Of a DNA stretch of 64,000 nucleotides, positions 2,779-48,602 are shown piece by piece. The notes beneath the pieces are model-generated. The model did no database searches and had not been told where the DNA came from. It saw nothing but the letters and a program-made list of their open reading frames with translations. The stretch lies in assembly GCA_026982565.1 (NCBI GenBank), contig JALSGV010000024.1, positions 13,341 through 77,340 on the forward strand, in the 5' to 3' direction. Position numbers and translations under genes: made by a program. Each line of letters begins with the position of its first letter. The stretch's first letter is position 1. The stretch is from Gammaproteobacteria bacterium. Lineage in GTDB: Bacteria; Pseudomonadota; Gammaproteobacteria; SZUA-140.

Positions 2779-3797
2779 AGCTGGGGGCCCTCCAGCTGGA
2801 CAGGCATCTCCAGCAGGGGTTGGCGCCTGTGTATTGTATTTCTGGAGATGAGCCCCTGCTGGTGCAGGAAGCCTGTGACCTGGTGCGCAGGCATGCGCGG
2901 GCGGCGGGCTGCGAGGAACGGCTGGTGATGCATGCCGATGGCGGTTTCGATTGGAACAGCCTGCTGCGGGAGGCCTGTGGCCTGTCCCTGTTTTCGCAGC
3001 GGCGGTTGCTGGAATTGCGTTTACCTACGGGAAAGCCCGGTGACGCGGGTGGCAAGGCCTTGCAGGCCTATGCAGCCGATGGCGGTGGTGACAATATCCT
3101 TTTGGTGATCTGCGGCAAACTCGATGCCGCCAGCCAGCGTACCCGTTGGTTCAAGGCCCTGGAGGGGGTCGGCGTCATCGTGCAGGTGTGGCCCCTGTCC
3201 TTGCGGCAACTGCCGGACTGGATCACGGGGCGCATGCGTCAGGCCGGCCTGCAGCCGAGTCGCGAGGCCGCCATGGTTCTGGCCGAGCGCGTGGAGGGGA
3301 ATCTCCTGGCCGCGGCCCAGGAGATCGAGAAGCTGCGAATGCTCCGGGGCGAAGGCGCCGTATCCGTGGACGAGGTGCTGGCCGCGGTGACGGACAGCGC
3401 GCGGTACGATATCTTCGGGCTGGTCGATTGCGCCCTGGCGGGCGAGGAAGGCCGTGTCGTGCGTATGCTGGATGGTCTGCGCGCCGAAGGCGTGGAGCCC
3501 ACTCTGGTGCTGTGGGCCATGGCGCGGGAAATCCGCCAGTTGGCAAGCATGTGTGGCGAGGTGGAACAGGGGGCCGCCCTGGGACAGGTGCTGGCCCGTT
3601 ACCGGGTGTGGGAAAAGCGTAAACCCCTTTTTACCCGCGCCTTGCAGCGCAGCCAGCGCCGGGACTGGCTGGCCATGATCCGCGCTTCGGCAAAGATCGA
3701 CCGCTGCATCAAGGGCCTGGAGGCAGGCAGCTGCTGGGACGAACTGTTGCAATTGGCCCTGAGCATGGCAGGGCGAAAAATGACGGAAACTGTCTGA
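2775..3797 (+). CDS. holA: DNA polymerase III delta subunit
   Basis: It is a 340-aa protein with HolA-like N-terminal and C-terminal regions. Its start overlaps the lptE stop (ATGA). Confidence 0.82.
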   Translation: MKLGALQLDRHLQQGLAPVYCISGDEPLLVQEACDLVRRHARAAGCEERLVMHADGGFDWNSLLREACGLSLFSQRRLLELRLPTGKPGDAGGKALQAYAADGGGDNILLVICGKLDAASQRTRWFKALEGVGVIVQVWPLSLRQLPDWITGRMRQAGLQPSREAAMVLAERVEGNLLAAAQEIEKLRMLRGEGAVSVDEVLAAVTDSARYDIFGLVDCALAGEEGRVVRMLDGLRAEGVEPTLVLWAMAREIRQLASMCGEVEQGAALGQVLARYRVWEKRKPLFTRALQRSQRRDWLAMIRASAKIDRCIKGLEAGSCWDELLQLALSMAGRKMTETV

Positions 3798-5282: not shown

Positions 5283-5418
5283 ATAAAAGGGCAAAGATAA
5301 AAGTTAAAACACCCTACGGCAAGTTGAGTGGGTATTTGAACATAAGCCCGAATAGCGCTCTCAACTACTGCTGTCAAAGATATTATTATCTCGTAACTTT
5401 TATCTTTGCCCTTTTATC
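5283..5418. repeat. 136-bp intergenic element bounded by 24-bp perfect inverted repeats (GATAAAAGGGCAAAGATAAAAGTT / AACTTTTATCTTTGCCCTTTTATC)
   Basis: The arms at 5283-5306 and 5395-5418 are exact reverse complements. An internal smaller inverted repeat is present (AGTTGAG/CTCAACT). It lies between the proA stop and the nadD start. Confidence 0.55.
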
Positions 5419-13077: not shown

Positions 13078-13097
13078 TCTGAATCCACGGATTCAGG
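13078..13097. repeat. REP-like 20-bp palindrome (TCTGAATCCACGGATTCAGG)
   Basis: It belongs to the dispersed CCTGAAYCCRYGGRTTCAGG family. It is intergenic between yhdP and the CN hydrolase. Confidence 0.6.
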
Positions 13098-13133: not shown

Positions 13134-13958
13134 ATGAGTCGCGTTGCAGCAATACAAATGGCATCTGGTCCCAATATTGGCGCCAACCTGATTGAAGCCG
13201 AGAGGCTGATCGGCCTCGCTGTGGAGAAAGGTGCTGATCTGGTCGTGATGCCGGAAAATTTCGCCATTATGGGATTGGACGAAGAAGACAAGGTTAGGTC
13301 ATGCGAGCAGAGTGGTGTGGGACCCATCCAGGAATTTATTGCGCGACAAGCCGCGCTCCATGGTGTGTGGATTGTGGCTGGCACCATACCCCTGAGGTCT
13401 GGCGATCCAGGCAAAGTATTTGCGGCTTGTATGTTGTACGACGACAGCGGTGAGTGCGTGGCGCGTTACGACAAGATGCACCTGTTCGATGTATATATCG
13501 AAGCCAATATGGAGAGCTACACGGAGTCACTGACCATATTGCCGGGTAAGGATGTGGTGGTGGTCGATACCCCCTTTGGTAAGATCGGCCTGGCTGTATG
13601 CTATGACTTGCGTTTTCCAGAGTTGTTTCGCTGTATGCTGGACAAGGGCGCAGAGATATTTGCAATTCCTTCCGCTTTTACCGCGTATACGGGAAAGGCG
13701 CACTGGGAGTCGCTGGTGCGTGTGCGGGCCATCGAGAATCTCTGTTACGTAATAGCGCCGGCACAGGGCGGGTATCATATCAATGGCAGGGAAACTTTCG
13801 GCGACAGTATGATTGTCGATCCCTGGGGTGTGGTTCTGGACAGAATGCCCACTGGCGCGGGCGTTGTCTGTGCTGACATCGACCTGGAGCATTTGAGTGG
13901 TGTCCGGCGCGGATTTCCTTCCATCAGCCACCGCAAGTTGCGTATCCCCGGAAGCTGA
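13134..13958 (+). CDS. Carbon-nitrogen hydrolase (nitrilase superfamily amidohydrolase)
   Basis: It is a 274-aa protein with the CN_hydrolase E-K-C triad context (MPENF...; AVCYD). Confidence 0.82.
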   Translation: MSRVAAIQMASGPNIGANLIEAERLIGLAVEKGADLVVMPENFAIMGLDEEDKVRSCEQSGVGPIQEFIARQAALHGVWIVAGTIPLRSGDPGKVFAACMLYDDSGECVARYDKMHLFDVYIEANMESYTESLTILPGKDVVVVDTPFGKIGLAVCYDLRFPELFRCMLDKGAEIFAIPSAFTAYTGKAHWESLVRVRAIENLCYVIAPAQGGYHINGRETFGDSMIVDPWGVVLDRMPTGAGVVCADIDLEHLSGVRRGFPSISHRKLRIPGS

Positions 13959-14007
13959 GAGATCTGTTGGTCTGGCGTATGCCTGAAGCCCTGAATACAA
14001 GGAAGCT

Positions 14008-14062
14008 CTGATTAATCCGTCATCCCGGCGCAAGCTGGAATGACAATTTTTGAATTAATCAG
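14008..14062. terminator. Extended hairpin followed by a T-run, after the CN-hydrolase gene (CTGATTAAT...GTCATCCCGGcgcaagCTGGAATGAC-AATTTTT...ATTAATCAG)
   Basis: It has a nested inverted repeat whose inner stem is followed by AATTTTT. It lies 50 nt after the stop at 13958. Confidence 0.45.
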
Positions 14063-14070
14063 GCCTTCCA

Positions 14071-14097
14071 CAATATATATTGTTGCCGGGTTGATAA
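14071..14097. repeat. Solo TIR-like fragment (CAATATATATTGTTGCCGGGTTGATAA) of the same element family
   Basis: It matches one arm of the 29-bp TIR with 2-3 mismatches. It is located in the CN-hydrolase-bolA intergenic region. Confidence 0.45.
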
Positions 14098-14161
14098 TGG
14101 TTTCTTGTTACAATGAGCGCTCCAGATTTTTTAGAACACAAATTAATCGTGTGGACTTACT

Positions 14162-14413
14162 ATGCAATGTGAAGATATTGAGAGGCTGATAGAGTCAGGT
14201 TTGAGCGGCAGTGAAGTGACCGTTACAGGCGATGGTACGCATTTTGAGGCGACAGTCATAAGTCCTTTGTTTGAGGGCAAGAGCATGCTGGAGCAGCATC
14301 GCATGGTCTATGCCACATTGGGTGATCGCATGCAATCTGACATACACGCCCTGTCGATACGCGCCTATACCCCTCAGCAATGGGAACGGGCGCGCCGCTT
14401 GCGCGTTACGTGA
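14162..14413 (+). CDS. ibaG: BolA-family protein (IbaG/YrbA-like)
   Basis: It is an 83-aa BolA-fold protein located directly upstream of murA, as in ibaG-murA. Confidence 0.8.
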   Translation: MQCEDIERLIESGLSGSEVTVTGDGTHFEATVISPLFEGKSMLEQHRMVYATLGDRMQSDIHALSIRAYTPQQWERARRLRVT

Positions 14414-14419
14414 ACATGA

Positions 14420-15679
<1,260 letters not shown>

Positions 15680-15718
15680 TCCGGCAGTTACCCGGCAATG
15701 CGTTGCTGATAATCATAT

Positions 15719-15740
15719 TCCTGAACCCGCGGATTCAGGA
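15719..15740. repeat. REP-like palindrome (TCCTGAACCCGCGGATTCAGGA)
   Basis: It is the same family and lies immediately upstream of the MITE-like element, after murA. Confidence 0.6.
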
Positions 15741-15752
15741 TGTTGTCTGATA

Positions 15753-16032
15753 TTAACCCGGCAACCATATATATCGTATTCAGGACTTCAGGCCTGTGCT
15801 GGAACAAGGCGCGGCGCGCAGGCAATGGTCATTCCATTGGCAAGCGCCGCAACGCCGTGCCAGGGCAGACCTGAAGTCCCTAACAGATTGAAATGAAAGG
15901 ACAGGCCATTGCGTGCCGGCCCGCTGACTGCGTTGGCGAAATTTGCTGTAGAATGACTACAGCGGCCTTTCGCCGCCTTGCAGCGAACCGGCACGCAATG
16001 GCTGAATACGATATATATGGTTGCCGGGTTAA
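15753..16032. mobile_element. MITE-like element (~280 bp) bounded by 29-bp perfect terminal inverted repeats TTAACCCGGCAACCATATATATCGTATTC / GAATACGATATATATGGTTGCCGGGTTAA. It has nested internal inverted repeats.
   Basis: Terminal inverted repeats (TIRs) at 15753-15781 and 16004-16032 are exact reverse complements. Internal 15-bp (GCCATTGCGTGCCGG/CCGGCACGCAATGGC) and longer imperfect palindromes are present. Related collapsed and solo copies occur elsewhere at 24477-24519 and 14071-14097. The element lies in the murA-hisG intergenic region, 40 bp upstream of the hisG start. Confidence 0.6.
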
Positions 16033-16072
16033 TAAAACGACTCAATCTACGACAAGTACCCTATCGATCGAC

Positions 16073-16720
16073 ATGAACACTCCCATAACGGTGGCCCTTT
16101 CCAAGGGGCGCATACTCAAGGATACCTTGCCATTGCTGGCCCATGCGGGCATCACCCTCAAGGATGATCCTTTCACGAGCCGCAAGCTGATTTTCGAAAC
16201 CAGCCGCGAGGACGTCAATGTCATTGTCATTCGGGCGGCGGATGTGCCAACATTCGTGGAAAACGGCGCGGCCGATCTCGGTGTGGCAGGCAAGGATGTT
16301 CTCATGGAATATGGTGGGAACGGCCTGTATGAGCCCCTGGATCTGAACATCGCCCGCTGCCGCCTGATGACTGCCGGGCGAAAAGGATGGGTCGATCAGG
16401 GGACCCGCCTGCGGATCGCCACGAAATATGTGGAGACGGCGCGGCGCTACTATGCCGCCCGTGGCGTCCAGGTTGAGATCGTCAAGCTTTACGGGTCCAT
16501 GGAGTTGGCGCCCCTGGTGGGATTGGCCGATTGTATCGTGGACCTGGTGGATACCGGCAATACGCTGAAGGCCAATGGTCTGGTGCCCATGGAAACCATC
16601 GCCGAGATCAGTTCACGTCTCATCATCAACAAGGCGTCGATGAAAATGAAACATAATAAAGTCAAGCGGCTCGTCGAGCTGTTGTCGGATGCCGTCGAAA
16701 ATCAAAGAGCGGGAGGGTAA
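16073..16720 (+). CDS. hisG: ATP phosphoribosyltransferase (short form)
   Basis: The protein ([15 protein letters not shown]...) is about 215 aa. The ORF-track start at 15893 is an N-terminal extension running through the upstream repeat element. A start at the internal ATG at 16073 is preferred. Confidence 0.9.
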
Positions 16721-19248: not shown

Positions 19249-19270
19249 ACCTGAACCCGCGGATTCAGGT
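19249..19270. repeat. REP-like palindrome (ACCTGAACCCGCGGATTCAGGT)
   Basis: Its core is identical to the 15719 copy. It is intergenic between hisC and hisB. Confidence 0.6.
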
Positions 19271-20651: not shown

Positions 20652-20671
20652 CCTGAGCCCGTGGGTTCAGG
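20652..20671. repeat. REP-like palindrome (CCTGAGCCCGTGGGTTCAGG)
   Basis: It is the same family and is intergenic between hisH and hisA. Confidence 0.55.
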
Positions 20672-24468: not shown

Positions 24469-24476
24469 TTGAGTTA

Positions 24477-24519
24477 TTAACCCGGCAACAATATATATCG
24501 TATATTGTTGCCGGGTTAA
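24477..24519. repeat. Collapsed copy of the MITE TIR pair (43-bp palindrome TTAACCCGGCAACAATATATATCGTATATTGTTGCCGGGTTAA)
   Basis: It has 19-bp perfect arms that are near-identical to the TIRs of the 15753-16032 element. It lies between the convergent tatC and degS-like genes and probably also acts as a bidirectional terminator. Confidence 0.6.
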
Positions 24520-24523
24520 TAAA

Positions 24524-24543
24524 CCTGAATCCGTGGGTTCAGG
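24524..24543. repeat. REP-like palindrome (CCTGAATCCGTGGGTTCAGG)
   Basis: It is the same family and is adjacent to the collapsed TIR palindrome after tatC. Confidence 0.6.
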
Positions 24544-48521: not shown

Positions 48522-48571
48522 AGGATGTTGTAGAGATGCCGGGTTGATATGTCCCGGCGATTTTATTGTAA

Positions 48572-48602
48572 CCTGAATCCATGGGCTCAGGGCGGATTCA
48601 GG
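48572..48602. repeat. REP-like palindrome, 1.5 copies (CCTGAATCCATGGGCTCAGG+GCGGATTCAGG)
   Basis: It is the same family. It lies in the divergent intergenic region between ELM1 paralogs 1 and 2. Confidence 0.55.

Follow-up and report, generated by a model that had tools for sequence, protein, structure and literature searches.

The murA-hisG junction lies within a 64,000-nucleotide stretch of gammaproteobacterial DNA, the whole of which we call the window. Both murA (14420-15679) and hisG (16073-16720) were confirmed by NCBIfam equivalogs, and the 393-nt spacer between them comprises 109 nt and an element of 284 bp on the plus strand (15751-16034, with the TA at each end counted; 280 bp without these flanking dinucleotides), whose right end lies 38 nt short of the hisG start codon (ATG at 16073). 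A sequence-only reading of the window had described this element as 280 bp long, with 29-bp perfect terminal inverted repeats (TIRs) and an end 40 bp before the hisG start codon. The perfect repeats and the placement just upstream of hisG hold, with corrected figures of 33 nt for each arm, 284 bp for the unit, and 38 nt for the distance. The left TIR (15751-15783, plus strand) consists of TA followed by TTAACCCGGCAACCATATATATCGTATTCAG and is 100% complementary to the right TIR (16002-16034, plus strand); the left arm reads TATTAACCCGGCAACCATATATATCGTATTCAG, and the right arm is its perfect reverse complement. The termini are fixed as TA-TTAACCCGGCAAC...GTTGCCGGGTTAA-TA. The arms are not self-palindromic except for an (AT)4 tract, and arm matches were found in none of 100 dinucleotide-preserving shuffles of the window, even with up to three mismatches allowed.

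The interior is organized as two hairpins, which by our orientation convention are numbered such that hairpin 1 comes first. Hairpin 1 (15783-15879, plus strand; helices 2-5 of the RNAalifold structure computed from the alignment) has covarying stems, is bounded by a 23-nt repeat with 83% complementarity (15783-15805 and 15857-15879), and encloses a core at approximately 15805-15857 that is found superfamily-wide, as described below. An unpaired 25-nt linker, CTAACAGATTGAAATGAAAGGACAG (15880-15904, plus strand), joins it to hairpin 2 (15905-16002, plus strand; helices 6-8), which carries the conserved apex TTGCTGTAGAATGACTACAGCGGC and a 15-bp perfect repeat (15905-15919 and 15988-16002) nested in a 22-nt repeat of 91% complementarity. 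The nested internal palindromes reported earlier, including the 15-bp repeat, were thus recovered both by repeat search and by folding; the RNA fold that had been proposed as a check yielded two long hairpins, with a free energy for the whole element, as a single strand, of -179 kcal/mol (z = -15 relative to shuffled sequences).

The element has no coding capacity, and its size, 284 bp, is below the approximately 600-bp limit for MITEs. Neither of the open reading frames (ORFs) within it (15893-16072 on the plus strand and 15788-16045 on the minus strand) matched a protein family in NCBIfam. The first of these is a 60-codon upstream extension of hisG; because it has no family match, and because HisG homologues are 211-216 amino acids long, it is regarded as an artefact, as the initial reading had supposed. 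A scan of positions 13900-16400 on both strands against Rfam 15 (E ≤ 1) gave no match, the His leader included, and no tRNA-like gene was found by ARAGORN.

A search of one genome per species with the TIR core, AACCCGGCAACMATATATAT, gave at least 86 matching stretches, spread over 10 or more gammaproteobacterial MAGs, and the hosts of the listed matches are nearly all uncultured Gammaproteobacteria of vents and sediments. One Sedimenticola MAG contains at least 45 TIR-core loci and MAG JALSIC01 at least 14; further loci occur in MAGs of Chromatiales, Thiohalobacter, and Thiotrichales and in unclassified MAGs. Pairing of arms among the matches listed delineated 39 complete copies with constant ends. 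All of these are intergenic, they lie in both orientations relative to flanking genes, and some elements are nested within one another. A copy that is 97.7% identical to that of the window is found at an unrelated site in MAG JALSIC01, upstream of an unrelated minus-strand gene. The check on copy number therefore came out clearly, the element being far from unique, and the suggestion of a family of non-autonomous palindromic elements is borne out by sequences that are multi-copy, TIR-bounded, and non-coding. In the literature searched, neither the TIR nor the core sequence turned up in a pertinent setting, and no MITE of Sedimenticola or Azotobacter was described. The window element represents one copy of a miniature transposable element, not described before, and several uncultured sulfur-oxidising Gammaproteobacteria carry this element dozens of times per genome.

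Complete copies fall into size classes of 40, 161-165, 194, 212, 217-222, 234, 245, 279-285, 304, and approximately 335 bp. The 279-285-bp class has 17 members, including the window copy, to which the other 16 are end-to-end homologues (73-83% identity, in either orientation); 15 of these 16 were taken into alignment A2. Conservation among copies is 88-100% in the TIRs, versus approximately 73-83% in the interiors, and the remaining size classes have hairpin 1 or hairpin 2 modules in common. In the 335-bp class (L039, 4265-4599; L021; L023; L054; L027; L033), an extra palindromic insert of approximately 51 nt, beginning GTCGCTCCAGTGCATCCATGCACTCGCGAC, is present at the apex of hairpin 1.

Many TIR-core matches are found no more than 300 nt from the end of a contig. 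The sole metagenome contig encoding an identical HisG stops within the element, at window position 15814 (positions 1-221 of this contig, L001, are identical to window positions 15814-16034). Both observations are as expected of a dispersed repeat in short-read assemblies. An assembly artefact at the window locus was ruled out by the identity of this independent contig over 15814-16034, together with the homologous copies present in many assemblies. Many of the short-read contigs among L002-L087 end inside the element, which is hence a practical cause of MAG fragmentation.

The window contains further traces of the family. A collapsed copy, in which nothing but the two TIRs is left (24475-24521; strand unassigned), forms a 21-22-bp stem with a 5-nt loop; it had been noticed before as a pair of abutting TIRs, and it is real, with the extent given here. 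Collapsed copies are also present elsewhere (L055, 3062-3101; L024, approximately 5316-5357). The copy at 24475-24521 is most likely an internal-deletion derivative, and the likeliest origin of such copies is an internal deletion that joined the (AT)n tracts, themselves self-complementary, of both TIRs; the long form is taken to be ancestral because relatives with other TIRs share the full interior. The solo arm reported near 14 kb is likewise genuine (14069-14096, with 5 mismatches in 29 nt) and proved to be part of a decayed partial copy on the minus strand (13967-14096) that also retains the start of hairpin 1 (13967-14000) and is split by a 69-nt mini-element of another TIR family (14001-14069). 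A possible short remnant of a TIR end, GCCGGGTTGATA, lies on the minus strand at 48537-48550, where the match is weak.

Other repeat families were encountered alongside these copies. The mini-element at 14001-14069 belongs to a family with the TIR GGAAsCTCTGATyAAT that was also found at L170 (2241-2405) and L049 (335-350); the copy of approximately 165 bp in the murA-hisG spacer of WGFB01 has a hairpin 1-like interior. A further, unrelated family is a 20-nt REP-like palindrome, CCTGAAyCCGyGGrTTCAGG, which occurs at six intergenic sites in the window (13078-13097, 15720-15739, 19250-19269, 20652-20671, 24524-24543, and 48572-48591) versus 0.01 expected. Two of these sites adjoin window copies of the TIR element, and among the MAG loci this palindrome is present only in L001, the contig from the same genome.

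Of 80 related metagenomic loci, 79 have murA next to hisG, and the TIR is found in none of the 79 spacers. Among the closest relatives, which were reached via HisG, L168 (93% HisG identity), L169 (93%), and L088 (87%) have spacers of 58, 49, and 113 nt, respectively, all of them lacking the element; in most of the closest relatives the spacer measures 0-58 nt. L170 (WGFB01; 90% HisG identity) has a spacer of 305 nt occupied at 2196-2500 by a solo right arm of the family and by an element with a different TIR, GGAACCTCTGATCAATTC. An exact empty murA-hisG site was not recovered, the spacers of the closest relatives being too diverged for base-by-base alignment, but the comparison of related strains that had been suggested is informative: the complete element is absent from the murA-hisG spacer of all relatives examined. 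Since it is absent at this locus in relatives and multi-copy elsewhere, rather than unique and conserved in place, the comparison favours a mobile element. Other spacers around hisG are also occupied. In L091 a window-type copy (3131-3255) directly follows hisG in the hisG-hisD spacer, and a related element lies in the same spacer of L121 (3222-3470), L118, and L128. Together with the window and L170, these loci indicate that the surroundings of hisG are recurrent landing sites, which suggests that the junctions there are tolerated or preferred. No Shine-Dalgarno-like motif precedes the hisG ATG in the window (16035-16072) or at the homologous positions of L168-L170.

The flanks and junctions of the copies bear on how they were inserted. 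TA directly precedes TTAACCC at 149 of 163 element ends, and position -3 is a T in 118 of them all, against a background T frequency of 20%; because TA is itself palindromic, its presence at the ends cannot alone tell a target duplication from an extension of the TIR. At the five junctions between abutting copies, the sequence is GCCGGGTTAA-TA-TTAACCCGGC, with exactly one common TA, the expected result of insertion into a TA beside a resident copy. A filled site (L067, 6200-6620) and the corresponding empty one (L041, 7060-7240) differ by the element plus one dinucleotide at TA, precisely what a TA duplication would leave. In L006 (373-1000; empty in L002, 30-330, and L070, 2420-2720) and in L077, an extra ATA lies beside the right TA; this exceeds a simple TA duplication and could reflect a longer-ended subfamily or (TAA)n slippage. 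The sequence-only reading had named TA or TTAA as flanks to be examined for duplication, and of the two, only TA fits. TTAA was rejected as a target duplication on three counts: position -3 is T, not A; the junctions read TTAA-TA-TTAA; and the altered ends of L079 (TCAA...TTGA) are a mirror-image change, not a direct one, so TTAA is part of the TIR. Several flanking ORFs run 6 nt into the element before they terminate, as they would at a TAA codon supplied by the terminal TAT-TAA. The Sedimenticola and Thiotrichales MAGs also hold further MITE-like families with CTAG ends (TIR beginning CTAGGAGTCTGTCGG), into copies of which the window-type element has inserted.

A search for the source of mobility found no TIR pairs at IS-like spacing (0.4-4 kb) in 86 loci, and no autonomous insertion sequence (IS) with these TIRs in approximately 0.5 Mb of MAG DNA around the copies, in PLSDB, or in IMG/VR. 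IMG/VR yielded 0 TIR matches, and PLSDB yielded no TIR match but matches to the core, none with an adjacent transposase. No transposase gene was seen next to any of the copies. Mid-contig solo arms are truncated copies beside ordinary genes, and transposase families, RAYT/Y1 included, were absent from the 25 listed of the 68 Pfam families matched by window proteins. IS630/Tc1-mariner transposases characteristically duplicate TA, and TA specifically, within a palindromic NTAN target, and because the copies here are flanked by TA in such a context, we infer mobilisation in trans by an IS630/Tc1-like enzyme; as no autonomous IS was found, this assignment of a transposase family is drawn from the TA flanks. 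The best explanation, and in our judgement a probable one, is that the element is a MITE, non-autonomous and TA-duplicating. Its approximately 30-bp TIRs would be recognised and bound by an IS630/Tc1-mariner-type DDE transposase supplied from another locus, which would cut and paste the element into TA, preferably T-TA-A, duplicating the TA; the collapsed hairpin at 24475 and the 14-kb fragment would be deletion and decay products of the same family.

Constraint on the interior is evident from the alignment of 16 full-length copies, for which RNAalifold predicted 102 pairs in a Y shape, comprising the TIR stem and the two hairpins, with 97.2% of alignment cells paired. Compensatory double changes occur at 32 of the 102 pairs, compared with 16.2 ± 2.2 in shuffled alignments (a count of 32 was reached in 0 of 500) and with 4-9 after sliding the partners relative to one another. 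The two strands fold equally well (mean minimum free energy of -182.4 vs. -182.9 kcal/mol), and the shared pairs include 15 G.U and 18 A.C cells; a strand-specific RNA spanning the whole element was ruled out by this equality of folding and by the near parity of G.U and A.C. Equal strands and mixed orientation imply that what is kept is palindromy of the DNA, or of both strands, and not the fold of a strand-specific RNA. This symmetry could stem from selection for a hairpin or cruciform, or from quasi-palindrome template-switch correction, an established mutational mechanism. Whatever the cause, the combination of covariation, invariant loops and bulges, and conservation independent of the TIRs is unusual for a MITE and is not predicted by plain transposon decay. 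The interior would be a Y-shaped hairpin pair whose symmetry is maintained at the DNA level, with the core of hairpin 1 predicted to be a probable protein-binding site.

The core also extends beyond elements with this TIR. Window positions 15805-15857 match an Azotobacter chroococcum plasmid in PLSDB with 90.6% identity over 53 nt, and the match lies in an unannotated element of approximately 270 bp on pAcX50f (L172, 1446-1716) that has the same Y architecture and TIRs, CTAGGGTCTGTTGACG, ending in CTAG, the classical IS630 target. Homologues with 73-81% identity are present on the IncP plasmid of Pseudomonas aeruginosa PA83 (L173, 4001-4270) and on a replicon of Halomonas PA16-9 (L174, 4001-4270), where they too are unannotated, measure approximately 270 bp, and have CTAG-ending TIRs (CTAGGGTCTGTTGACG); the P. 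aeruginosa copy fills the gap between genes for a CoA-transferase and an acyl-CoA dehydrogenase. The order TIR stem, hairpin 1, linker, hairpin 2 thus recurs with different TIRs in P. aeruginosa, Halomonas, L121/L118/L128, and L170. Alignment and profile search identified invariant unpaired motifs across this superfamily (AACAAGGCG, CAAG, and GCAACGC) and an almost invariant inner palindrome, GGCAAnGG-N5-CCnTTGCC, giving the hairpin 1 motif CAAGGCG...GGCAAnGG-N5-CCnTTGCC-AAG...GCAACGC, whereas a 6-bp stem shows up to five pair types per position.

Three other explanations were weighed against a MITE mobilised in trans. The most distant takes the element for a his-specific structured RNA, either a leader acting in cis or a non-coding RNA, or else for an insertion that brought a promoter hisG now relies on. 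The closeness of the element to the hisG start and its very stable fold would suit such a role, as would the weak terminator-like hairpin that follows murA (15719-15740), which, if functional, would make a start for hisG downstream of it necessary. However, the element is missing at this locus from every relative examined, even where HisG is 93% identical; copies lie at unrelated loci in both orientations; the plus strand is without a sigma-70-like promoter; the -10-like TAGAAT is not conserved; and the His leader is among the Rfam families that gave no match. The version that posits a conserved his leader is largely refuted, and we consider the explanation as a whole very improbable. Somewhat less remote, yet still unlikely, is a host palindrome of the REP/BIME or ERIC kind, whose spread would be due to recombination, or to a RAYT/Y1 (HUH) transposase that works on hairpins in single strands, instead of to DDE cut-and-paste. 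The extreme hairpin richness and the symmetry on both strands are what this would lead one to expect; the modular size classes, the nested copies, and the failure to find a DDE parent element in MAG flanks, PLSDB, or IMG/VR also speak for it, as does the separate REP-like palindrome family adjoining two of the window copies. Against these stand the long, perfect, non-self-palindromic TIRs, the constant ends, the TA flanks, and the single TA shared at junctions, all hallmarks of DDE transposition of the IS630 type; REPs, moreover, are 20-40-nt head-to-head units, unlike this element, and no RAYT gene is among the 25 listed Pfam families.

The third alternative refines the MITE reading without excluding it: the conserved interior, that is, the hairpin 1 core and the hairpin 2 apex, would be a selected module, either a structure-specific site bound by the transposase or by a host protein, or a small structured RNA, carried by elements whose TIRs have been swapped or have diverged. 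Its case is made by the Azotobacter core match, by the recurrence of the architecture with different TIRs, and by stems that covary with up to five pair types per position around invariant bulges and loops. On the plus strand of the window, the core hairpin taken alone has 17 G.U against 2 A.C pairs, an excess that comes largely from one related subfamily, so that these counts are not independent events. Copies of the 284-bp class between co-directional genes are in the sense orientation in five of five cases, but orientation is mixed across the superfamily (the window and L091 sense; L121, L170, and L173 antisense), the whole element lacks strand asymmetry, and no Rfam family matches. Template-switch correction could, in addition, produce apparently compensatory changes without selection. 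We hold this refinement to be possible but rather doubtful. A broader form of it is a little more tentative still: that elements with the Y-shaped interior of approximately 270-290 bp form a superfamily of mobile palindromes that is widespread in Gammaproteobacteria but has not been described, spanning vent MAGs, Azotobacter, Pseudomonas, and Halomonas, in which the core rather than the TIR is selected and travels behind interchangeable TIRs as a structure-specific module or small RNA. As such a module, the core would be, for example, a hairpin to which a transposase or host factor binds when the DNA is single-stranded or cruciform.

Under the preferred reading as a TA-duplicating MITE, the consequences for the his operon would follow from where the element landed. 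It had been proposed that the element might supply the his promoter; this finds no support, as a scan of the plus strand from 15400 to 16300 detected no sigma-70-like site. Manual reading of two candidate hexamers, TTGCCG near the right end and TAGAAT in the hairpin 2 apex, led to their rejection as lacking a partner hexamer or not being conserved, TAGAAT reading TAGGGT in many copies. From the sequence, then, the element appears to bring no promoter of its own. A single terminator-like site was identified, the weak 22-nt palindrome after murA (15719-15740), which coincides with the REP-like site at 15720-15739. The 0-58-nt spacers of most of the closest relatives suggest co-transcription of murA and hisG as the likely ancestral state. 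The element would thus have landed in a normally short, co-transcribed junction, and the his genes are most likely transcribed by readthrough from murA, so that their transcripts would contain a very stable hairpin of 284 nt. By analogy with Correia elements, this hairpin may be a target of RNase III or a determinant of stability, through which transcript processing or stability could change.

Among known systems, the nearest are the IS630-derived MITEs and the Correia elements (CREE/NEMIS) of Neisseria. Like the window family, Correia elements are small, non-coding, many-copy, and intergenic, have TIRs of approximately 26-33 bp with TA at both ends, fold into long hairpins, and are frequently co-transcribed with neighbouring genes, a feature that is putative for the window family. 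To our knowledge, no cognate transposase is known for Correia elements, and the same is true of the window family. The two are nevertheless unrelated in sequence (the Correia TIR is TATAGTGGATTAACAAAAATCAGGAC, compared with TTAACCCGGCAACMATATATATCG here), and the Correia unit, at approximately 100-155 bp, is about half the length of the 284-bp unit described here. The window family differs further in its Y-shaped interior with two covarying hairpins, in a core kept across TIR-divergent relatives, in its vent and sediment gammaproteobacterial hosts, and in having no evident outward promoter. Correia-containing transcripts are cleaved by RNase III at the TIRs (PMC10969869).

MITEs of the IS630/Tc1-mariner type, such as RUP and Nezha, share TIRs and non-autonomy with the window family and duplicate a TA target in a palindromic NTAN context, as the window family probably does in T-TA-A, and the Azotobacter-type relatives of the element end in C-TA-G. 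In contrast to those MITEs, no parent with matching TIRs was found in MAG flanks, PLSDB, or IMG/VR, and the interior is conserved across differing TIRs, which is unexpected if each MITE is an internal deletion of its own IS. ERIC/IRU sequences of the Enterobacteriaceae and Vibrio are likewise long, imperfect, intergenic, transcribed palindromes with indel size variants at fixed positions, and we know of no transposase for them; they differ in their length of approximately 127 bp, in lacking long perfect TIRs, in having no sequence similarity, and in their taxonomic range. The RAYT-mobilised REP/BIME sequences resemble the family as abundant extragenic palindromes, but are single hairpins of 20-40 nt rather than a 284-bp unit with TIR ends and TA flanks. 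The window family is not a sequence member of the Correia elements, IS630-derived MITEs, ERIC, or any Rfam family, although it probably works like a TA-duplicating bacterial MITE.

For MAGs of sulfur oxidisers from vents and sediments, the family explains long "empty" intergenic spacers, spurious ORFs such as the extended hisG, and frequent breaks between contigs, and a family model would improve the assembly and annotation of these genomes. The independent occupation of hisG spacers in several lineages indicates that junctions in essential operons tolerate, and may be affected by, insertions of very stable hairpins. The covarying interior could reveal what such elements need in order to move or to persist.
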